From Rhodothermales bacterium (GTDB taxonomy: Bacteria; Bacteroidota; Rhodothermia; Rhodothermales; DASSAV01), in the NCBI GenBank assembly GCA_035699265.1, contig DASSAV010000055.1, positions 1-49,822 of the forward strand: a stretch of 49,822 nt of DNA. The letters run 5' to 3'. Positions 1 to 20,588 of the stretch are shown here, one piece after another. The notes beneath the pieces are model-generated. The model did no database searches, was not told the origin of the DNA, and saw only the letters and a program-made list of their open reading frames with translations. The translations under genes and the position numbers were made by a program. Each line of letters opens with the position of its first letter. The first letter of the stretch is position 1.

Positions 1-1305
1 CGGATATCCGGCTTTCTGTAGGATGAGCGAGGGGGAATCAATGGACGCCTCCTGGGTGTCGTAGCTCGCCCGCTCCTGGCCCAAACGCCCAACATACTGT
101 TCCGCTTCTCGCGCAAAATCGTCCCAGCGCTCCTCAGCGGCAAGCTCTGCGAAATACTCCCTGCCATGCGAGACGGTGGTATCCCCATCGATGCCTGTCA
201 ACAGCACGCGGGCGCCGGTTTGTTTCGCCGTTTTGAACAACTGCCACCTCCGATACGTCCCGCCCACTCCCATGCGCCCGTCGTCCAGGTAGTCGTACAT
301 GTCCCGGGCGGTACTCAGCGGCCCATATTGATCCGACCGGATGAAATGCGGCTCTAGACCCCCGAGGGCCAGCATTTGACGTATGTAGTATCGCTCGTCA
401 CTACCTGCTACGTCGTCGTACACGTTCGAGTACGTCTTGAGATCAGGGCCGCCCTCTCGTTCTACAATACTTCGAGCCACTCCCGTGACGAACGAGGAGT
501 CAAGCCCGCCGCTTAATTCAATTCCAACCGGGTAGGCGCTTCGAATGCGGCAACGGACCGCTTCGGTAAATAATTCCAGGAACCGCTCTGTGCACGCTTC
601 CCGGTTTAGCTGTGTTGCCTCCTCGGACGGTTCGATGGTCCAGTATCGCCACAGCTTGATACCCGCCGGTTCGATGCTCATGGCATGGGCAGGAGGCAGC
701 TTCGAGACACCTTTGAAGACCGTCGAGTCAGGGGGGCGGCGCATCCATGCGAGTGATTCACCGAGACGAACCTCATCGATTTCTAGCACCACCTCATCGG
801 TAGCGGCGAGAGCCTTGATCTCGGAGCCGCAGGCGAAAAACCGATTCGGCCGATGGGTATAATAGAGCTGGCCCGCACCAAGCTGATCCACGGCGCAAAA
901 CAAGCGCCGGGCGCGCGCATCCCACACGACGAAAGCGAAGTCGCCGACCAGGTGACTCACGACAGCCTCCCCCCACCGCTCGTACCCGGCGAGTAGCAAT
1001 TGGCTGTCGGCGCAGTCCTGCCCGAGCACACTCCTCCCCAGAGCGGCCAGTAGTTCTTCCCTATTATCTATGCGAGCATCGGCTGTTATGACGATGTTGC
1101 CGGCACAGTTCGCAGCGGGAAGATGCTCAGAGAGCGATTCCGGCGTCGTGTAGAGCATACAGTGCGCGAGCCCGATCTGCCCATCGGACCATACGGCCTG
1201 CGCGTCGGGACCCCGGTGGCCAGCCATGCTGTCCACCATATGCTCCATGAGGCCCGGGCCTACCTGCCGCCCGTCGAAGTAATATAAGCCCGCGATTCCA
1301 GACAC
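1..1305 (-). CDS. Asparagine-synthetase-superfamily enzyme with its C-terminus cut by the window edge. The N-terminus lacks Cys2 and resembles lasso-peptide isopeptide cyclases (McjC type).
   Basis: This is my own minus-strand translation from the GTG at 1305. The ORF is absent from the track because it runs off the edge. It reads VSGIAGLYYFDGRQV..HRGPDAQAVWSDGQIGLAHCMLYTTPESLSEHLP..ITADARIDNREEL..GDFAFVVWDARARRLFCAVDQLG..KGVSKLPPAH..ELSGGLDSS (PP-loop SGGxDS). An in-frame stop at 1318-1320 excludes a longer N-terminus. Ser occupies the place of the Cys2 nucleophile. Confidence 0.8.
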   Translation of the reverse strand, partial: MSGIAGLYYFDGRQVGPGLMEHMVDSMAGHRGPDAQAVWSDGQIGLAHCMLYTTPESLSEHLPAANCAGNIVITADARIDNREELLAALGRSVLGQDCADSQLLLAGYERWGEAVVSHLVGDFAFVVWDARARRLFCAVDQLGAGQLYYTHRPNRFFACGSEIKALAATDEVVLEIDEVRLGESLAWMRRPPDSTVFKGVSKLPPAHAMSIEPAGIKLWRYWTIEPSEEATQLNREACTERFLELFTEAVRCRIRSAYPVGIELSGGLDSSFVTGVARSIVEREGGPDLKTYSNVYDDVAGSDERYYIRQMLALGGLEPHFIRSDQYGPLSTARDMYDYLDDGRMGVGGTYRRWQLFKTAKQTGARVLLTGIDGDTTVSHGREYFAELAAEERWDDFAREAEQYVGRLGQERASYDTQEASIDSPSLILQKAGYP

Positions 1306-1399
1306 CTCATCCTCGGTCTACTGGGTAGATCCAACAACCCTTCTCCAACGCTGTCTGTACAAAATTTTGAGAGCCTCCTGTCGGTACTGATCGGGCTTG

Positions 1400-2326
1400 T
1401 CAGGTCGCGTATTCTGCGGTGCGATCACGCCACTTTTGAACGAAGCCTGCAATCGTATTTTCGTCGTAGAAGTGACGCACGTACTTCGTGGAATAGATAC
1501 GTTCGCAGACTTCAGATGGAATGCGAATGTTATCTTTCACAAACGTATAGGCCTGGCGGTGTTTCTTGTGGGTCCCGACATTCGATTCTTTCACCTCAAT
1601 CGGCTGATCTATAGCCAGAAACTCGCGCAGCGCTCCGGAAAGAGTTCTTCGGAGATCCTCCTGCCGAAGAATCAGTACGTGCAGCCTGCCATGTTCCAGA
1701 ATGGTGTACCCCTTCCTGCAGTTGAAGGGTACCTGATATATGTCTACATCAAAAAACTTCTTAAACTCGATATCAAACCAGTTGCTGGCCAGGTCACGCT
1801 TCTCGTCGAACCTCGCGAACATGCTCTGAAGATACCGTAGGGTGTCCTGTTCTCGTGCTCTCCCATCCTCGTCCAGGAGATCCGGACAAAAGTAGTGGAT
1901 ATTCTGAAAGAAGGATGACAGGGTCCAACTGACGGGTTCTCGTACACCCGTGATGATATAAAGTGGCGCATCCGCTTGCCGCAGGAGCTTACTGCGGAGC
2001 AAATGTCCCGTCTGAATATGTTGCAGGGTCTTGGGCTCCAGGATCTTCTTCTGCCTGGCTAACACAAATCGCTGCTCGTCCCACTCTAAGTTGCCGGGTG
2101 ATAAGTAATGGATATGATAGACGGGGTTCAGCAGTTTGGCCGTTTGGAGCGACCGGTAAATTGTTGTCGAGCCGACTTTGCCCATCTGGTACACGAGGAT
2201 CGGCGGATGCTTCGAAAAGTCCTGTAGACCTATCCTGATCTTCTCGATCAAACGGTTGGACGTCACTTTCCTCAAACGCCTCCTGGCACCTCGAATGGTT
2301 CTGGTGACGACAGGTATCCTATCCAT
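1400..2326 (-). CDS. Sulfotransferase-like protein (paralogue A of a tandem pair)
   Basis: P-loop-like YQMGKVGSTT and downstream GVREPVSWTLSSF (an R-x-P...S 3'-PB-like motif). It aligns end to end with the next ORF starting from MDRIPVVTRT, which supports the ATG at 2326. The track ORF extends to a GTG at 2386. Confidence 0.6.
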   Translation of the reverse strand: MDRIPVVTRTIRGARRRLRKVTSNRLIEKIRIGLQDFSKHPPILVYQMGKVGSTTIYRSLQTAKLLNPVYHIHYLSPGNLEWDEQRFVLARQKKILEPKTLQHIQTGHLLRSKLLRQADAPLYIITGVREPVSWTLSSFFQNIHYFCPDLLDEDGRAREQDTLRYLQSMFARFDEKRDLASNWFDIEFKKFFDVDIYQVPFNCRKGYTILEHGRLHVLILRQEDLRRTLSGALREFLAIDQPIEVKESNVGTHKKHRQAYTFVKDNIRIPSEVCERIYSTKYVRHFYDENTIAGFVQKWRDRTAEYAT

Positions 2327-2401
2327 TGTGCATCGTCGTTTCGTTTCCAACCATGCAGCCTGCACACAGACGCCTCCTACGAACACGATTGGTCTGTTTT
2401 G

Positions 2402-3355
2402 CTAGACCGCTACCTCTACGGCACGATCCCGCCATTTTCCAACGAAGCCTGCGATTTCCTCGTCGTCGTAGAAATGACGCACGTACTTCGTGGAATAGAG
2501 TCGCTCACAAATCTCGGGAGAAATGCTGAGGTGGTTCTTTACAAACGAATAGGCATGTCCGTGCATCCTTTTGCTCCCAACGTTCGCTTCTTTGATCTCT
2601 ATTGGCTGGTCCGTGGGCAAGAACCCTCGGAGCACGCCAGGAAGGGTCTTTCGGAGATCCTCCTGCCGCAAAATCAGCACGTGTTGCCTGCCAGATTCAA
2701 GAATAGAGTAGCCTTTCTCTCGGTCAAAAGGCTTCTGGTATACGTCAATGCCCAGGGTATCCTTAAACTCGACGTCAAACCACTTGCTTGCCAGTTCAAC
2801 GTCGAACCAATCGGTGGCCGGATTGCGCTTATCGCCGAGCCTCGCAAACATCCCTTGCAAATACTCGAGAGTTTCCTGTTCCCGCGCCGTACCATCCTCA
2901 TCGAGTAGCTCGGGGCAGAAATAATGGACGTGTTGAAAGAATCTCGACAGCGCCCAACTAACAGGTTCTCGCACACCTGTTACGATGTAGAGCGGTACGT
3001 CGGGCTTACGCCGAAGCTTCTCATGGAGCAGCCGCCCGGTATGGAGGTGATGTAAAGCCTTAGGATCCACGGCGGTCTCCTTCCTGACCACGGCAAAACG
3101 CTGAATTTCCTGCTCCAGGTGAATCGGAGACAAAAAGTGGACGTGGTAGACAGGATTCCTCAAACGGGCCCTTTGAAGCGCCTCGTATATCGACATTGAG
3201 CCAACCTTGCCCATCTGATATACAAGGATCGGCGGGCGCTTCACAAAATCCTGTAGGTACATCTGGATTTGCTCGACCAGTTGATCGGGCACTATTTCCT
3301 TTAGCCGTTTTCCGGCGCGCCGAACGGTCCGCGAGATGACAGGTACGTTGTTCAT
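2402..3355 (-). CDS. Sulfotransferase-like protein (paralogue B of a tandem pair)
   Basis: YQMGKVGSMS and GVREPVSWALSRF. Homology to the paralogue begins at MNNVPVISRT (ATG at 3355). The track ORF extends to a TTG at 3520 with a hydrophobic stretch, so the start is uncertain. Confidence 0.6.
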   Translation of the reverse strand: MNNVPVISRTVRRAGKRLKEIVPDQLVEQIQMYLQDFVKRPPILVYQMGKVGSMSIYEALQRARLRNPVYHVHFLSPIHLEQEIQRFAVVRKETAVDPKALHHLHTGRLLHEKLRRKPDVPLYIVTGVREPVSWALSRFFQHVHYFCPELLDEDGTAREQETLEYLQGMFARLGDKRNPATDWFDVELASKWFDVEFKDTLGIDVYQKPFDREKGYSILESGRQHVLILRQEDLRKTLPGVLRGFLPTDQPIEIKEANVGSKRMHGHAYSFVKNHLSISPEICERLYSTKYVRHFYDDEEIAGFVGKWRDRAVEVAV

Positions 3356-3630
3356 GGGCGCCGTCTTTTCGTTTACCTCTGCGCAGGAACGCATAGAACC
3401 CTGCTTCAAACAGGCACATTCCATTGTGTCCACCCACCCGCAAAATAACCCAAAGCAGAACGCGAGAATGTTAGCATGTTGTATCGTCAGCCGTGCAGAA
3501 AGGCGCACGCTCGTCCCCAATTGTAACGCTAACCGTCGTCACAGCTTGATTCGAATGGAGGACGGCACGCGCTTTGGATGCACTCCTCTTCGCGTTTCAG
3601 GTCGCAACCGCTATGTGTCTTCGTCCGCCC

Positions 3631-4674
3631 TCAAGCGTTCTGGGGCACCAGCTTGCCCATGCGCTGCCGCAGCTTGTTCCGATGCGGCCTCGATCTGGTT
3701 TTCGCAGTTAACCAGAGTCGTCCCAGTCTCCACTTCATCAGCCAAACTGCGCTCGCGAAAGATCCGCGCCACCCGCTCACTCGCAGATAGTACACCCAGC
3801 GCAGCTCGGCTGCACCAACCCGATCTCTACCGTCAGTGACCCTGAGGTGCCACGGCTTCGAGGCTCCGCAGAAATGAAAAATATGTGGCTGGGTCAGGAT
3901 CTCTTCTCGCATCGACCCCAACTCCTCTCGGAATGCGGCATCTCTTCCGGTTCTCTTGGAAGTATCGAGGCGCCAGAGTCTGGGCGAGACGTTCCACCTC
4001 TCTTCGAGCATCCCCCATCGCTCTGCCAGTACCACGTTGAGCCCATCCTGGTCGGCAAACTGGAGATCCTCGCGGAACGCGTTCACGTACTGGACCACCT
4101 TCTCACGCACGCACTCCTCGCGCCAGCGCTTCAGGTTCATCACCAGCACTCCAGAATTCAGGTACGGCTGGTCGGCTGAGAGCCCGAGGTCAGCATACTG
4201 GCGAATGCCATACCTGGAAGAAACGTACGGCACACCAAAGTCCCGCACAGCCAGTACGGCCTGGTCCCCCATTTCTTCTTCCCACAATTGAGCGAGGTCT
4301 GCCTCTACGATCAGATCACAATCCAGGTAAATCGCTTTGTTCAACCCTTCCGGCACGACGTCCGGAATCAAAAGACGGAGATAAGCGGCTGGGCTGATCC
4401 ACTTGCAACCCTCGAGGCCGGAGAGAACCGAGGCATCCGGCCTGACCCATTCGATTTGCAAAGCGACGCGCTCGGATCGGCACACATGGTACAACCGTGC
4501 CCGGTTTCGCTCACTGATTCCGCCGTCCAGAACGTAAAGGCGGATCTCGCTACCGCTGCGAACATGAGCCAGTGCAGAGTACAGTGTCACCGCTAGCGGC
4601 ATCGCGTACGTATCGTCCGCTGCGCACACAAGGACAATCGGACCATGTTGTCTTGCTCCGTTCTCCCCGCTCAT
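3631..4674 (-). CDS. GT8-family glycosyltransferase (LPS/EPS galactosyl- or glucosyltransferase-like)
   Basis: IVLVCAADDTYAMPLAVTLYS, AIYLDCDLIVEADLAQLW (DxD), YLNSGVLVMNLKRWRE. It ends in a basic amphipathic C-terminal tail. Confidence 0.75.
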   Translation of the reverse strand: MSGENGARQHGPIVLVCAADDTYAMPLAVTLYSALAHVRSGSEIRLYVLDGGISERNRARLYHVCRSERVALQIEWVRPDASVLSGLEGCKWISPAAYLRLLIPDVVPEGLNKAIYLDCDLIVEADLAQLWEEEMGDQAVLAVRDFGVPYVSSRYGIRQYADLGLSADQPYLNSGVLVMNLKRWREECVREKVVQYVNAFREDLQFADQDGLNVVLAERWGMLEERWNVSPRLWRLDTSKRTGRDAAFREELGSMREEILTQPHIFHFCGASKPWHLRVTDGRDRVGAAELRWVYYLRVSGWRGSFASAVWLMKWRLGRLWLTAKTRSRPHRNKLRQRMGKLVPQNA

Positions 4675-14460: not shown

Positions 14461-15555
14461 TCAGCTCCTGTCCGATGAACCTCGCCGAAGCAGATAGATC
14501 TGGAAGAGATGGATGTAATACGGCAGTCGATCCCTCCTGCGCTCCCGCATCCTCAAATGAAAATGCGCGCGCCGTATACCGGGGAAGTTCCTCTCTTGCG
14601 GGATGATGTCGCACCGCACGATGTTCGCGAGGGATTTCACACCTGCATCGTTGCCGATGCCATCACGGACTGCTTCCGGCAGATCGACACCCAGAAATTC
14701 GCCTGCCAGATGGAGCCCCAGGAATAACATGCGCTTGCAACGAATCCGGTCGGCTTCTGCCAGGACAAAATCCCAATCCAGATCTGGTCGTGCACGGACG
14801 AGTTCAGCAACGTCGCAGACCCAGATGAGGCGCGCCCAGAAGCTCTTGGACCCGTGCGCACATAGGTAAAGCAAAAGATCCTCCGTCGAGAAAGTCCGCA
14901 CCGTCGCTCCGCCCAGATACGTCGTCGTGGATCGTTCCCAGAGGCGTTCTGTCTCAAGTGTAAACGCATGCACTTTGTTGAGTAGAGCCCAGTGGATTTC
15001 GACGGCTGCCCGGTTCTGCTTGACGAACTCATAGCCCATCTGCGTCTCGATAAACCTGAGTTCCTGCTCCGGGCTCATCTTCCGATACGGCTGGTACCCA
15101 TCTTCTGCAAGTACCGCCTTCGCACACGGCACATCTTTACGCTGCACGAGAACGTCGAGGTCCGAGAACTGCCTGAGCGAGAGGTTTCGGTAAATGTCGG
15201 CGGCAAGGACGGGGCCCTTAAAGGGAAGGACGAGTACCCCATGACTCTCCAGCAGTTTTATCACGCGCAGAAGCTCTTGTGTTCTGGTGAGATTCCGAAA
15301 TGCAATCCGCCTGCACCGGGCGAGCAGGTCTTGCAAAACAGGCGCCGGAACACGATCACCAAAAGACCCTCGCAGCGTCTGGTGAAGAAGCGAGGTTACG
15401 CCATGTGTATTGGACAATGCGAGCAGGCGCTTCCAATCCACACCATCGTCGAGGCAGGCACGGATCCGTTCCCTCACATCGTCCTCGAGATGCGTCCGAG
15501 CACAGAGAAGCATGAGTGATACTTCACGCGTCATATTCATGCGTGCGCCGCGCAC
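14461..15555 (-). CDS. Uncharacterised nucleotidyltransferase family protein (PF14907/NTP_transf_5-like)
   Basis: DWKRLLALSNTHGVTSLLHQTL and VLPFKGPVLAADIYRNLSLRQFSDLDVLVQRKDVPCAKAVLAEDGY match my memory of this family. It is the last gene of the long minus-strand train. Confidence 0.6.
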   Translation of the reverse strand: MRGARMNMTREVSLMLLCARTHLEDDVRERIRACLDDGVDWKRLLALSNTHGVTSLLHQTLRGSFGDRVPAPVLQDLLARCRRIAFRNLTRTQELLRVIKLLESHGVLVLPFKGPVLAADIYRNLSLRQFSDLDVLVQRKDVPCAKAVLAEDGYQPYRKMSPEQELRFIETQMGYEFVKQNRAAVEIHWALLNKVHAFTLETERLWERSTTTYLGGATVRTFSTEDLLLYLCAHGSKSFWARLIWVCDVAELVRARPDLDWDFVLAEADRIRCKRMLFLGLHLAGEFLGVDLPEAVRDGIGNDAGVKSLANIVRCDIIPQERNFPGIRRAHFHLRMRERRRDRLPYYIHLFQIYLLRRGSSDRS

Positions 15556-17524: not shown

Positions 17525-18687
17525 GGTAGAAGCTCTTCGTAAACGGTCCGAGTCCGCGCAGCAATAACAGGCCAGTCAAAGTGCGCGCGCGCGTAAGCCT
17601 GGCAGGCGGTCGCAGATGGCAGCTTGAGATCGCCCATGATCGCCGCGGACAGGTGCTCGCCGATATTCTCGGCTCTCGTACCGCAAAGGACGAGATCCCG
17701 GCTAAGCCCCCTCACCGCCTCGGGTAAACCTCCGACGGGCGTAACGAGCACCGGCGTACCGGTAGCCAGCGATTCAACCGTAACCAGGCCAAATCCTTCT
17801 AGTGCGATCGATGGCACCACCGTTACGTCTGCTGCTCGATAAGCCAGCGGGAGGTCTGATTCCGGAACGTAACCGAGCAGCTTGATCTGTTGGCCGAGGC
17901 CGGCCGCTTCTACCCGGGCGGCGAGTTCGGCGGTCAGGAGGCCTTTACCGGCAATGTAGAGGACGGCTTCCGGAACGCGCCGGCGCACGACATGCATCGC
18001 CTCGATCAAGTTCTCCAGTCCCATGCGGCGCGCCAACCTCCTTACTGACAACATGATCGGTCGGTCTGCCGGCCACCCGAGTCGCGCGCGCGCCTCCGCG
18101 CGCGTGCACGAGATCGTAAACTGATTTACCTCCACGCCCCCGGGAATGATGCGGATGCGTTCCTCCGGAACGGCATAATGCTGTTGCAGCAGTCTCCCGA
18201 AAGCCTCAGAGAGCACGATGAAACGAGCGCCCCGCCGGTAGACGGCCTGCTCGACGGCCGCTTTCAACCTGACTGCCAGGGCATGCGCTCCTTCCACGCG
18301 GCCTTCATGTGCCCACGGTCCGTGGAAATGAATCACGAGCGGCTTGCCATGTAATTGATCGAGAATCGGAAACGTGTAGAGTGCAAAATGTGAAGCGATC
18401 AGGTCGTACTCGGTTGCGTCCACTTCACGCTGTACCCTCTTGCGAATAGCCAGCAGTCGGCGGATCAGTGGCGCCGCATCCGATGCAAATGCTCTTACTG
18501 GTTCGTCTGACCCGATCCCGGTGCCCGGGGACCCTGCCACGAGGCCCGTAAAGTGTACGTCTACGCCTGGTAAGTGGCGAGCAAGCGCATGATAGACGCG
18601 GTCTAATCCGTTTCCGGCCTGCTCCGGAAACCAGCTCATCCCCAGTTGCAGGGTATGGATGCTGCCGTTCGTCCTGGAAGGGGCCAT
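17521..18687 (-). CDS. GT4 glycosyltransferase
   Basis: EGFGLVTVESLATGTPVLVTPVGGLPEAV. I chose the start at 18687 because its ATG overlaps the asnB stop codon (TGATG at 18685-18689). The track ORF extends to 18750. Confidence 0.8.
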   Translation of the reverse strand: MAPSRTNGSIHTLQLGMSWFPEQAGNGLDRVYHALARHLPGVDVHFTGLVAGSPGTGIGSDEPVRAFASDAAPLIRRLLAIRKRVQREVDATEYDLIASHFALYTFPILDQLHGKPLVIHFHGPWAHEGRVEGAHALAVRLKAAVEQAVYRRGARFIVLSEAFGRLLQQHYAVPEERIRIIPGGVEVNQFTISCTRAEARARLGWPADRPIMLSVRRLARRMGLENLIEAMHVVRRRVPEAVLYIAGKGLLTAELAARVEAAGLGQQIKLLGYVPESDLPLAYRAADVTVVPSIALEGFGLVTVESLATGTPVLVTPVGGLPEAVRGLSRDLVLCGTRAENIGEHLSAAIMGDLKLPSATACQAYARAHFDWPVIAARTRTVYEELLP

Positions 18688-20588
18688 CAGCGTAACGCCT
18701 CCAGGCTGTCGTTCCGCGACATCGTACCATCGAGCGTCATTCTCGCCCATATTTCCAGCACGAAAAGGGTCCAGAGCTGCTCACCCCAGTTGCGCACGCC
18801 CGCCGTATGCTCTTCCACCATGCGCCGGGCATACACGGGGCAGATCCATTCTCGCTGCTCGAATGCCGGGCTCAGCAGAGCAGCACGCAGATACGGCGCC
18901 AGTTCGCTGCGCAACCAGTCGGCAGCCGGCATGACAAAACCACGCTTGCGGCGGTACAGTACCTCATCCGGCACGTAGCGTTCAGCCAGGCGCTTGAGCA
19001 AGTACTTCGTCGCATACCCCTTGAGACGCAGTTTGGTAGGAATGCGGGCCGCATACTCGATCAGCTTCGTATCCAGTAGCGGCGAACGTGCCTCCACCGA
19101 ATGTGCCATCGTCGAAACGTCCATCTTCGCCAGAAGCTGATCCGGCAAGTACGTCGCAAAATCCCCGTACAGAGCCCGGTCCACATCATCGACGCTCGTG
19201 ACCCTTCCAAAGGCGTCCCGGTAGAACGTATCGGGGTGGCGGTCGGCCACGGTTCGCATGAAAGCCGGGGCGTAAGCTGCCGACCGGTACCGGCGAAACG
19301 CGCGGTCGTAGACAAACGCCTCCATCGCGGTCCCCTGCCCCGCAACTGCGAGCATGCCCAGTGGTTTGAGGGGCCCCCGATCCAACCCGCTCAGTTGACG
19401 ACCGAGGAATCGTCGCATCCCCGCGGGCACCATGCGGCGGTAATGCTGGGCCGCCCGCGTTACGACCGGCCGCGCATAGCCGCCGAAGAGTTCGTCCCCC
19501 CCGTCACCGTTGAGAACGACGGTCACGTGCTGCCGGGCCGCTTGCGCCACATAGTACGTCGGCACGATGGAAACGTCAGCCAGTGGCTGCCCGTAATGCC
19601 AGATGATTTCGGGAAGATCGACGACGGCGTTTGCCTGCAAAACGTGTTCGTGGAGATGCACGCCCCACCGTTGCGCTACCTGGCGCGCATGGATTCGCTC
19701 ATCGTAAACAGGATCTTCGAAGCCCATCACGACGGCCTCGACCGGCCTGGAGGAGAGCGACGCCATCATGGACACGACGAGGCTGGAATCGACGCCGCCC
19801 GAGAGAAATGCACCGAGCGGCACGTCGCTCATCAGACGTTTGCGGACAGCCTCGCGCACCAGCACGTCCAGGTCGTCCAGTATGTCCGCCTCCGTTTGCT
19901 GCAGCTTGGGACCATAGCTCACCTCCCAGTAACGCGCGACCTGGAGCGTGTCAGAACCGGGTCGGTAGGAAAGTTGATGAGCCGGCGGCAATTGCTGAAC
20001 GCCCCTCAAAATAGACAGGGGAGCAGGGACGGCCTGGTACGTCAAATAGGCGTCCAGAGCGACGGGATCGACCTCCCGCCCCCCCGGCAGCAGTGCGCCG
20101 AGGGCATTCAAAGTGGAGGCGAATGCCAGGCCCTTGCCCGAATGGGCGTAGAAAAACGGTTTCTTGCCCACACGGTCCCGGGCGGCGTAGAACGTCTGTG
20201 TCCTCGCGTCCCAGACGGCAAAGGCGAACATGCCGTCGATTCGCTCGAGCAGGCCGGACCAGCCCCAGGCCAGATATCCGTTGAGGAGAACTTCGGTATC
20301 AGACGTCGAACGGAAGGATCGGACCTGCTCCAGCTCCCGGCGAAGCTCCAGGTGGTTGTATATCTCGCCATTGAAGACCAGTACGACCGCGTCGTCTTCC
20401 GCGGTCATGGGCTGATGGCCGGCCGGTGACAGGTCCAGGATGGCAAGGCGTCGGAACCCCAGTGTAGCGGGCCCCGACTGCGCCCAACCGACGTCGTCAG
20501 GGCCGCGATGCGCCATCAAGTCGCGCGCCTGCTCAAGCCGGTCGGCGTATCGGCATGCCTCCCCTACCAGACCGATGATACCGCACAT
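18687..20588 (-). CDS. asnB: Asparagine synthase (glutamine-hydrolysing), a polysaccharide-locus amidotransferase type
   Basis: MCGIIGLVG (Cys2 nucleophile), HRGPDD, RLAILDLSPAGHQPM, LVFNGEIYNH, GMFAFAVWD, FLSGGVDSS. Confidence 0.9.
   Translation of the reverse strand: MCGIIGLVGEACRYADRLEQARDLMAHRGPDDVGWAQSGPATLGFRRLAILDLSPAGHQPMTAEDDAVVLVFNGEIYNHLELRRELEQVRSFRSTSDTEVLLNGYLAWGWSGLLERIDGMFAFAVWDARTQTFYAARDRVGKKPFFYAHSGKGLAFASTLNALGALLPGGREVDPVALDAYLTYQAVPAPLSILRGVQQLPPAHQLSYRPGSDTLQVARYWEVSYGPKLQQTEADILDDLDVLVREAVRKRLMSDVPLGAFLSGGVDSSLVVSMMASLSSRPVEAVVMGFEDPVYDERIHARQVAQRWGVHLHEHVLQANAVVDLPEIIWHYGQPLADVSIVPTYYVAQAARQHVTVVLNGDGGDELFGGYARPVVTRAAQHYRRMVPAGMRRFLGRQLSGLDRGPLKPLGMLAVAGQGTAMEAFVYDRAFRRYRSAAYAPAFMRTVADRHPDTFYRDAFGRVTSVDDVDRALYGDFATYLPDQLLAKMDVSTMAHSVEARSPLLDTKLIEYAARIPTKLRLKGYATKYLLKRLAERYVPDEVLYRRKRGFVMPAADWLRSELAPYLRAALLSPAFEQREWICPVYARRMVEEHTAGVRNWGEQLWTLFVLEIWARMTLDGTMSRNDSLEALR

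Follow-up and report, generated by a model that had tools for sequence, protein, structure and literature searches.

Among the closest described systems are the clusters for paeninodin of Paenibacillus dendritiformis and pseudomycoidin of Bacillus pseudomycoides, lasso peptides that are phosphorylated by HprK and glycosylated by PsmN (PMC8498205, PMC6993621). In these clusters B1 and B2 are separate, the cyclase resembles AsnB, and an HprK homologue and an ABC exporter accompany it; a nucleotidyltransferase is an optional addition (PMC8498205, PMC6993621). The only target that has been shown experimentally for lasso-associated HprK kinases is the terminal Ser of the precursor (PMC8498205). The cyclase family that NCBI already models as NF033535 is common in cyanobacteria and was found in 80 of 285 Rhodothermales genomes; about 70 related loci share the gene order B1-B2-C-A-K-D-N. 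In the literature searched we found no paper on a product of this clade or on any Rhodothermales lasso peptide. The cyclase examined here is a further member of the NF033535 family.

The cyclase and its continuation on a second contig

The cyclase gene starts near the left edge of the window (the whole stretch of 49,822 nucleotides that was analysed, contig C55) and runs off it (Table 1). A preliminary description, made from the sequence of the window, had read this ORF as an Asn-synthetase homologue that fits lasso cyclases better than AsnB, and its observations were borne out. The minus-strand ORF begins with a GTG at 1305, preceded by GAGGA, reads (M)SGIAG with Ser rather than the amidotransferase Cys at residue 2, and contains the strings LYTTPESLSEHLP, ITADARIDNREEL and GDFAFVVWD. 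The in-frame TAG that had been said to exclude an upstream Cys was also found, only four codons (T-E-D-E) ahead of the GTG. Ser2 is common to 76 of 77 relatives, which begin MS[G/A]I. The PP-loop motif SGGxDS serves ATP-dependent carboxylate adenylation; here it reads S265-G266-G267-L-D269-S270 and is kept in at least 93% of 74 relatives. Of the residues conserved in the family 70 of 77 are retained, other members keeping 58-76.

The left end of the window overlaps exactly with the right end of contig C161, and the cyclase continues across it to give a protein of 685 aa within a joined sequence of 58 kb, the join being based on the 141-bp graph overlap only. The possibility that two paralogous cyclases had been joined into a chimera was rejected, as both halves have their nearest relatives at loci L029 and L030 and not among the genome's own paralogues, and the profile alignment runs over the junction as a single continuous stretch.

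When the joined protein was compared with family models it scored 623.3 bits on NF033535 (lasso cyclase; cut-off 525) versus 234.9 on the AsnB equivalog TIGR01536, below the cut-off of 267.1. The part in the window scored 479.7 on NF033535 (model positions 1-408) and 189.8 on AsnB. As an internal control served the gene which had been pointed out as the locus's true AsnB, an identification that we confirm, with 453.6 bits on TIGR01536 and 207.8 on NF033535. In a tree the cyclase was placed within a Rhodothermota clade, sister to cyanobacterial cyclases and distant from the window's AsnB, and its branch is long, at 0.9 substitutions per site. The closest solved structures in a sequence search were AsnB-family enzymes (7ylz, 1ct9), and this search returned no solved lasso-cyclase structure. 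The comparisons support the Cys-less Asn-synthetase look-alike as a lasso-peptide cyclase, with macrolactam synthesis predicted by homology.

Table 1. Positions of the features discussed, in the window (contig C55) and on the adjoining contig C161 (locus L008)
Feature	Position	Strand	Remark
Exact overlap with right end of contig G000:C161 (L008)	window 1..141		141 bp, unique
Lasso-peptide cyclase (C protein), N-terminal 435 codons	window 1..1305	-	runs off left window edge
In-frame TAG upstream of cyclase start	window 1318..1320	-	bars a longer N-terminus with Cys
NKWYS-family (PF10364) sulfotransferase-like gene 1	window 1400..2386	-	77.3 bits
NKWYS-family sulfotransferase-like gene 2	window 2402..3520	-	PF10364 86 bits; called start 3355
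GT8 glycosyltransferase	window 3631..4674	-	PF01501, 142 bits; first clear polysaccharide gene upstream
PF14907 nucleotidyltransferase	window 14461..15555	-	232 bits
Glutamine-hydrolysing asparagine synthetase / EPS-type amidotransferase (internal control)	window 18687..20588	-	MCGIIG start, NGEIYNH, GMFAF
LuxR-type response regulator, convergent	L008 3210-4172	+	follows PqqD/RRE gene
PqqD/RRE protein	L008 4203-4601	-	PF05402
ABC exporter	L008 4525-6372	-	
HprK-like kinase	L008 6385-7290	-	
Precursor, 57 aa	L008 7358-7531	-	
Cyclase C-terminus	L008 7624-8517	-	

The cluster downstream and its predicted product

It had been stated that no RRE, B2 or precursor gene is visible in the window, which is correct, and that these genes would be expected to its left. 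When the sequence was extended leftward, genes came to light within 5.5 kb downstream of the cyclase for a precursor, a kinase resembling HprK, an exporter of the ABC type and a PqqD/RRE protein (PF05402); the expected B2, a transglutaminase-like leader peptidase (PF13471), was absent. Read along the minus strand of C55 + C161, the cluster has the order C-A-K-D-B1, and the reading frames of all five genes and of the precursor are unbroken. The PqqD/RRE protein scored 62.3 bits on PF05402 (cut-off 23.4) and 59.7 on lasso_PqqD_Bac, below the cut-off of 80. The HprK-like protein matched HprK_rel_A with 45.6 bits (cut-off 200) and PF07475 with 22.7 (cut-off 33.3), over the P-loop region only (GQSGWGKST); in about 70 related clusters the gene at the corresponding place encodes a protein with 28-41% identity to it. 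PF14907 nucleotidyltransferases had been listed, in the plural, among the accessory genes of the window; a single gene passes the cut-off. It is homologous to the N gene, which in related lasso clusters comes after the exporter, with 29-40% identity to such genes (35% to that of G116, a genome of the same genus), and lies 13 kb upstream of the cyclase among GT4 genes.

The precursor reads MKKYSAPVLIEHEDVVAIT-A followed by ATDDSARIDENEKSNTLGVGSYDVCYHGVCTPGRGPR, the predicted cleavage site lying between the two. It scored 26.1 bits (E 6e-6) on the lasso-peptide precursor family NF033528, below the cut-off of 33, and ranked top among 81,425 genomic ORFs (E 2.5e-6) when searched with an HMM derived from 70 precursors of relatives, its own sequence excluded. 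It has the leader motif Y4xxP7xL9, T19 and D29, which is D9 of the core, in the same register as the family, where P and T are spaced by 12 in 68 of 70 precursors and D stands at T+10 in 62 of 68. The predicted core (ATDDSARID...) has 37 residues and a predicted A1-D9 ring, with Thr at -2 before it; in the family, cores are unusually long, at 35-54 aa in all but three of 71, with a two-Cys tail. An internal S-x-D motif is conserved in 59 of 71 family precursors, and the present one is the only one of the 71 with Tyr at x (GSYD, Tyr22).

By homology, the PqqD-like RRE would bind the leader through the YxxPxL motif and the leader would be cleaved after the Thr(-2)-Ala(-1) junction, whereupon the cyclase would adenylate Asp9 and couple this residue to the Ala1 amine freed by the cut; the result would be a ring of 9 residues with a 28-residue tail threaded through it. 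Cys25 and Cys30 of the tail may form a disulfide, and the ABC protein of the cluster would export the product. For the predicted lasso form a monoisotopic mass of 3920.78 Da was calculated, or 3918.76 Da if the disulfide is formed. Ser21 of S-x-D might be the residue on which the HprK-like kinase acts. Since the precursor ends in Arg (a terminal Ser was found in 3 of 70 family precursors) and so lacks the sole experimentally shown HprK target, a kinase step on this peptide is only a guess.

Leader peptidase, sulfotransferase-like genes and alternative readings

No PF13471 match at E<=1 was found on C55 or C161, and a six-frame search of the joined 58 kb with a family-specific HMM gave no match at E<=10, so that a B2 domain hidden in a fusion with the HprK-like or PqqD ORF was rejected. 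Elsewhere in the genome there are two NF033537-positive B2 genes, on contigs C215 and C364, the latter in a PqqD-HprK-B2 locus, and we assume that B2 is most likely supplied in trans from one of these. B2 lies within 10 kb in 72 of 80 related loci and directly upstream of C in 60. Related Rhodothermales clusters are often without an adjacent B2, as judged in G003, G396, G403, G344 and others from 1.5-kb flanks and ±10-kb loci; in G396, a same-family genome of 330 contigs with a marker completeness of 100%, which has three cyclases, no PF13471 gene could be detected.

Upstream of the cyclase lie the two NKWYS-family genes, tandem paralogues with 61% identity, of which gene 1 likely starts at the ATG at 2326 (gene caller, 2251). 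Both genes score above the PF10364 cut-off. PAPS-dependent sulfotransferases are marked by 5'-PSB Lys/Ser and 3'-PB Arg...Ser motifs. Some sources name homologues of the pair 'sulfotransferase family 2', and a set of 38 homologues shows no variation at K25, S28, H48, R104 and S112, with an order K-H-R-S that matches cytosolic sulfotransferases. The assignment rests on these motifs and names, since a PDB sequence search with gene 1 gave no match and Foldseek with a confident AF2 model (pLDDT 91.9) gave no significant one, the best sulfotransferase match being weak (HS 6-O-sulfotransferase 5t03, E 0.2, TM 0.38). In the EPS loci of three Rhodothermales genomes a GT4 gene directly adjoins the homologue, and metagenomic homologues lie amid Wzy, Wzx and GT4 genes or with GT2 and sulfotransferase genes. 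The pair is co-oriented with the cyclase, 94 bp upstream, and co-transcription is possible; no terminator was detected between them, in scans for promoters and terminators that stayed at chance level on both contigs and whose promoter models held no Bacteroidota type. In this genome the lasso genes are physically interleaved with polysaccharide genes.

Three other readings were weighed. The preliminary description had offered as its alternative a glutaminase-dead adenylating enzyme with a sugar carboxylate as the substrate that it amidates or ligates; this would be an AsnB-type protein of the polysaccharide locus. Such a role would suit an ORF that ends a long co-oriented train of polysaccharide genes and has the Pfam domains Asn_synthase and GATase_7, but the protein reaches 178 bits on the EPS-type amidotransferase model TIGR03108, far from the cut-off of 817, where the window's other AsnB gene reaches 544, and a family-typical precursor, RRE, kinase and exporter directly follow it; we reject this reading as extremely improbable. 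It is unlikely, if less so, that what is left here is the decaying or silent remnant of a cluster, one which lost B2 (and an adjacent N gene) by rearrangement and makes no lasso peptide. B2 is missing here while the Salinibacteraceae relative L090 has the order K-C-A-A-D-B1-B2, 30 bp separate B1 from the end of the convergent LuxR gene, at the expected place of B2, and the cyclase branch is long. Against decay speak the five intact genes with their precursor, the count of conserved cyclase residues, which is inside the family range, and the making of pseudomycoidin in heterologous hosts without B1 or B2 (PMC6993621). Moreover, layouts without B2 recur in Rhodothermales (G116 of the same genus, G344, L094 and three loci of G396), which argues for a tolerated architecture.

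The NKWYS pair could also encode tailoring enzymes that O-sulfate the peptide, for example at Tyr22 in GSYD or at Tyr26, in line with the earlier suggestion of sulfotransferases as lasso accessory genes. The pair's position on the cyclase's strand and shortly before it, the lack of a terminator-like site in the gap, and the Tyr that this precursor alone has inside S-x-D, are in keeping with it, as is the GC content of the pair (51% in the gene 1 region), which differs from that of both neighbours and suggests a recent insertion. Reviews also note that some Firmicutes lasso clusters begin with uncharacterised sulfotransferase genes (PMC8498205, PMC4289311). We nevertheless hold peptide sulfation to be quite unlikely: no homologue was found within 10 kb of any of the 80 related cyclases, relatives' homologues adjoin a GT4 gene inside polysaccharide loci, the window has many glycosyltransferases besides Sulfotransfer_1 and Sulfotransfer_3 genes, and the annotation of PF10364 is that of a capsular-polysaccharide family. 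Because its relatives sit among polysaccharide genes and none near the 80 lasso clusters, the pair most likely serves the adjacent sulfated-polysaccharide locus and not the lasso cluster.

As far as sequence can tell, the ORF is thus very probably the C protein of a kinase-associated lasso cluster, with B2 likely acting in trans and the NKWYS pair belonging to a sulfated-polysaccharide train. More speculatively, there is a small chance that Rhodothermales clusters like the present one need no B2 of their own, several of them using a distant shared one, such as that on C364, or an unrelated protease. Sulfation of Tyr22 or Tyr26 is a further possibility; no sulfated lasso peptide is described in the literature searched.

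Comparison with known systems

A gene that could be read as a polysaccharide amidotransferase is, in this interpretation, the core enzyme of a RiPP cluster divided by a contig break, and it leads to a concrete prediction for the product, whose core of 37 residues would carry an A1-D9 ring and which belongs to a large cyanobacterial and Rhodothermales lasso family. The recurrent lack of an adjacent B2 in Rhodothermales bears on whether B1 and B2 are indispensable, a question raised by the pseudomycoidin work. With AsnB and the XrtA/PEP-CTERM-type EPS amidotransferases (TIGR01536, TIGR03108) the cyclase shares the Ntn-amidotransferase-like and PP-loop ATP-pyrophosphatase domains, but it lacks the Cys2 nucleophile and falls below both family cut-offs.

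Paeninodin has an Ala1-Asp9 ring. The paeninodin-like precursor of Paenibacillus cookii (L108) has the same leader-core register as the one described here, with Thr(-2) and Asp at T+10; its core is about 23 aa long versus 37 aa here, and the cyclase of this relative is about 29% identical to the present one. Characterised kinases of the paeninodin type phosphorylate a C-terminal Ser, which is missing from the present precursor and from 67 of 70 family members.

The NF033535 clusters of cyanobacteria and Rhodothermales (B1-B2-C-A-HprK-ABC-PF14907) differ from the present one in that here the order is C-A-K-D-B1 with no B2, the PF14907 gene lies 13 kb off, and the place of B1-B2 upstream of C is taken by the sulfotransferase-like genes. 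They are alike in the cyclase, which is 37-52% identical (37-45% over the whole protein, up to 52%, to L030, in the N-terminal part) and has the MSGI start and the PP-loop, in the HprK-like, ABC and PqqD genes, and in the precursor, with its leader MKKxYxxPxL...T, D at T+10, S-x-D and two-Cys tail.

The class of the enzyme at the left edge

The assembly (3.86 Mb, 580 contigs, 93% complete) includes the window as its contig C55. The first 141 bases of C55 recur exactly at the right end of a neighbouring contig, C161 (8,517 bp), and no third contig of the assembly shares this end sequence. When C55 and C161 were joined, the frame at the left edge became a 685-aa protein that matched the model "lasso peptide isopeptide bond-forming cyclase" (NF033535) in a single continuous alignment with 623.3 bits, above the cut-off of 525. 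The same protein fell under the cut-off of the AsnB equivalog model TIGR01536 (234.9 against 267.1 bits) and far under that of the EPS-type amidotransferase model TIGR03108 (178 against 817), while the AsnB-like control gene of the window gave the opposite pattern, with 453.6, 543.8 and 207.8 bits for the AsnB, EPS-type and lasso models, respectively. A chimeric join is unlikely, since the nearest relatives of both halves are the same two Rhodothermales MAGs (L029, L030) and not the genome's own paralogues.

The preliminary description had favoured a lasso cyclase over AsnB and had proposed two checks, a leftward extension and a comparison of HMM scores. Both were run, and both agreed with it: the lasso model was passed and the AsnB and EPS-type models were failed, and a precursor ORF and a PqqD/RRE gene were found on C161, together with an HprK-like kinase and an exporter. 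Taken together, the sequence comparisons support the window-edge ORF as a putative lasso-peptide cyclase, with its predicted precursor, RRE, kinase and exporter just outside the window.

Features of the window (C55), of C161 (locus L008) and of other contigs of the same genome
Feature	Position	Strand	Remarks
Cyclase, N-terminal part	C55 1-1305	-	GTG start at 1305; runs off left edge; 435 codons in window
NKWYS sulfotransferase-like gene 1	C55 1400-2386	-	PF10364
NKWYS sulfotransferase-like gene 2	C55 2402-3520	-	PF10364
1,055-aa protein	C55 7143-10310	-	Big_7 Ig domain
Sulfotransfer_1 gene	C55 10629-11651	-	among GT4, GT2, GT8 genes
PF14907 gene	C55 14461-15555		13 kb from cyclase, among GT4 genes
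AsnB-like control gene	C55 18687-20588	-	MCGIIG start, NGEIYNH, GMFAF
Sulfotransfer_3 gene	C55 20659-21618	-	among GT4, GT2, GT8 genes
Precursor, 57 aa	L008 7358-7531	same as cyclase	GGAGG 6 nt ahead of ATG
HprK-like P-loop protein	L008 6385-7290	same as cyclase	family scores below cut-offs
ABC exporter	L008 4525-6372	same as cyclase	family match
PqqD/RRE protein	L008 4203-4601	same as cyclase	PF05402, 62 bits
LuxR-type response regulator	L008, beyond PqqD/RRE	convergent	
B2 no. 1	C215		NF033537; adjoins another PqqD gene
B2 no. 2	within C364 6916-10928 (locus L143)	-	NF033537, 63.5 bits; PqqD / HprK-related-kinase-A-like / unknown ORFs / B2
552-aa frame	C30 465-2120 (locus L010)	-	Glycos_transf_4 and PqqD

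The reading of the ORF itself also held. Its N-terminus, (M)SGIAG, has Ser where class-II amidotransferases carry their nucleophile, Cys2; a TAG in the same frame (1320-1318) lies four codons (T-E-D-E) upstream of the GTG, and GAGGA stands ahead of the start codon. All three motifs quoted earlier, among them GDFAFVVWD, were found in the ORF, and those listed for the true AsnB were found in the control gene. Every relative whose N-terminus could be read (76) begins MS[G/A]I. Of the 77 positions that at least 93% of 74 relatives share, the protein keeps 70, including S265-G-G-x-D-S270. In a maximum-likelihood tree the cyclase, on a long branch, was placed in a well-supported Rhodothermota clade that is sister to cyanobacterial cyclases, a long way from the AsnB of the window. 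The enzyme adds a new member to a family for which NCBI already has a model, with a match at E<=1e-100 in 80 of 285 Rhodothermales genomes (61 above the cut-off). No solved structure was closer to it than AsnB-type enzymes, and in the literature searched no paper was found that deals with a lasso peptide from Rhodothermales or with any of this clade's products.

The precursor and its predicted product

Across 80 related loci, retrieved with the cyclase as query, the small ORFs between the cyclase and HprK genes form a clear family, with as many as six precursor genes in tandem (Moorena; related loci L029-L108). The 57-aa ORF matches the lasso-peptide precursor family NF033528 (E 6e-6), and with an HMM built from the small ORFs of 70 relatives, the 57-aa ORF itself left out, it ranked first of the genome's 81,425 six-frame ORFs (E 2.5e-6); second came an ORF directly downstream of another cyclase paralogue. 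It carries the motif Y4-x-x-P7-x-L9, its Pro-to-Thr19 spacing of 12 residues is that of 68 of the 70 precursors, and Asp is found at the place of Asp29, 10 residues past Thr19, in 62 of 68. Paeninodin has an Ala1-Asp9 ring, and the paeninodin-like precursor of Paenibacillus cookii (L108) shares the family register. Based on this family register and on the Thr(-2) rule for the leader/core junction (PMC10368454), the core is predicted to be ATDDSARIDENEKSNTLGVGSYDVCYHGVCTPGRGPR with an Ala1-Asp9 macrolactam. Its mass is calculated as 3920.78 Da, and as 3918.76 Da if Cys25 and Cys30 form a disulfide.

Cores in this family are long (35-54 aa in all but three of 71), exactly two Cys occur in 44 of the 71 precursors, and 59 carry an S-x-D motif past the ring; shuffles gave 20 on average and 30 at most. 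Lasso-associated HprK kinases have one proven target, a C-terminal Ser (PMC8498205). The 57-aa precursor does not end in Ser and, since only 3 of 70 family precursors do, the HprK target in this family must differ from that of paeninodin; Ser21, in the conserved S-x-D, is a candidate site only.

Sulfotransferase-like genes and the polysaccharide locus

The two NKWYS genes upstream of the cyclase are paralogues with 61% identity. K25, S28, H48, R104 and S112 are invariant among 38 NKWYS homologues, a pattern which we take to fit the residues by which sulfotransferases bind PAPS and carry out catalysis. The AF2 model was confident (pLDDT 91.9), and Foldseek gave only weak matches, the best sulfotransferase being a heparan-sulfate 6-O-sulfotransferase (E 0.2). 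At 51-53% GC the pair lies below both of its neighbours (58-59%) and the genome as a whole (61.9%), which suggests that a gene was recently inserted and then duplicated in tandem.

The preliminary description had counted sulfotransferases among the known accessory genes of some lasso clusters. Since some Firmicutes lasso clusters begin with uncharacterised sulfotransferase genes (PMC8498205, PMC4289311), we allow a slim chance that the pair tailors the lasso peptide, but none of the 80 related cyclases has an NKWYS homologue within 10 kb, and in a phylum-wide sample of 401 genomes just 6, counting the present one, have such a homologue. Furthermore, in three genomes (G036, G344 and G116) the homologue adjoins a GT4 gene in a polysaccharide locus that is separated from the lasso cluster by 16-36 kb, and homologues from metagenomes have as neighbours either Wzy, Wzx, GT4 and sugar-modifying genes or GT2 and sulfotransferase genes. 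The association of the pair with the lasso cluster looks incidental.

The window also carries GT2, GT8 and several GT4 genes, and the product of its locus is probably a polysaccharide with heavy sulfation. Within this gene train the 1,055-aa protein has an N-terminal signal-like segment, and no family match beyond its Ig domain was found. The PF14907 protein matches those of lasso-linked PF14907 (N) genes at 29-40%, on par with other cluster proteins and their counterparts. That lasso and polysaccharide genes are closely mixed, physically, in this genome is itself of interest.

The leader peptidase and gene order

The leader peptidase (B2) had been expected left of the window with the RRE and the precursor; the latter two lie there, but B2 was absent from the joined 58 kb both in a PF13471 search and with an HMM from the B2 proteins of 55 relatives. 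Two B2 genes passing NF033537 are found elsewhere in the genome. That on C364, in a locus without a cyclase, has a 52% identical orthologue in a same-genus genome (G116:C8, at about 129 kb), and is a candidate for supplying B2 in trans. With C for cyclase, A precursor, K HprK-like kinase, D ABC exporter, B1 PqqD/RRE and N PF14907 nucleotidyltransferase, B2-less clusters recur within Rhodothermales: in G116 the order is B1-C-A-K-D-N, with the sole B2 57 kb away; in G344 B1 abuts C, and B2 is 1.7 Mb away; locus L094 has no B2 within 10 kb of the cyclase; and genome G396, with three cyclases, gave no PF13471 match. As a related cyclase, that of pseudomycoidin, functions in vivo without B1 or B2 (PMC6993621), we infer only as a working view, and not as a result, that B2 would be supplied in trans.

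Other lasso loci were observed in the genome. A second lasso cyclase is directly preceded by the 552-aa frame on C30, which combines Glycos_transf_4 (WecA/MraY-type, aa 86-240) and PqqD (aa 478-544); this frame reflects either the fusion of a membrane sugar-phosphate transferase with an RRE or the loss of a stop codon. Since the right end of C227 (2,375 bp; L009) has a 141-bp overlap with its own start and overlaps C30 too, this contig is a 2.2-kb tandemly repeated unit with a full lasso cyclase (693 bits); no precursor was visible in its spacer of roughly 120 bp. C385, C311 and C459 (L011, L020, L145) are pieces of a third, C-A-K-D locus with the precursor MKAYLSPTLTCFGSVRDLTHQSSTGCVDPS..., in which the 1.5 kb ahead of the cyclase gene holds neither B1 nor B2.

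In G116, a lasso cluster, an EPS locus, a LuxR regulator, a B2 locus and PEGA/TPR/repeat-protein genes lie on one contig (C8, 60-140 kb; loci L138-L142). Their order differs from that of C161 and C55, and protein identities are only 35-58%; the whole region is reshuffled between the two genomes.

The interest of the cluster lies in its long conserved core and in a B2-less, rearranged architecture that is seen in other Rhodothermales too. B2 lies within 10 kb of the cyclase in 72 of 80 related loci, immediately upstream of C in 60, and the canonical order of the relatives is B1-B2-C-A(n)-HprK-ABC-PF14907, whereas the order here is C-A-K-D-B1. The C161/C55 locus looks like the arrangement of a Salinibacteraceae relative (L090), K-C-A-A-D-B1-B2, minus B2.
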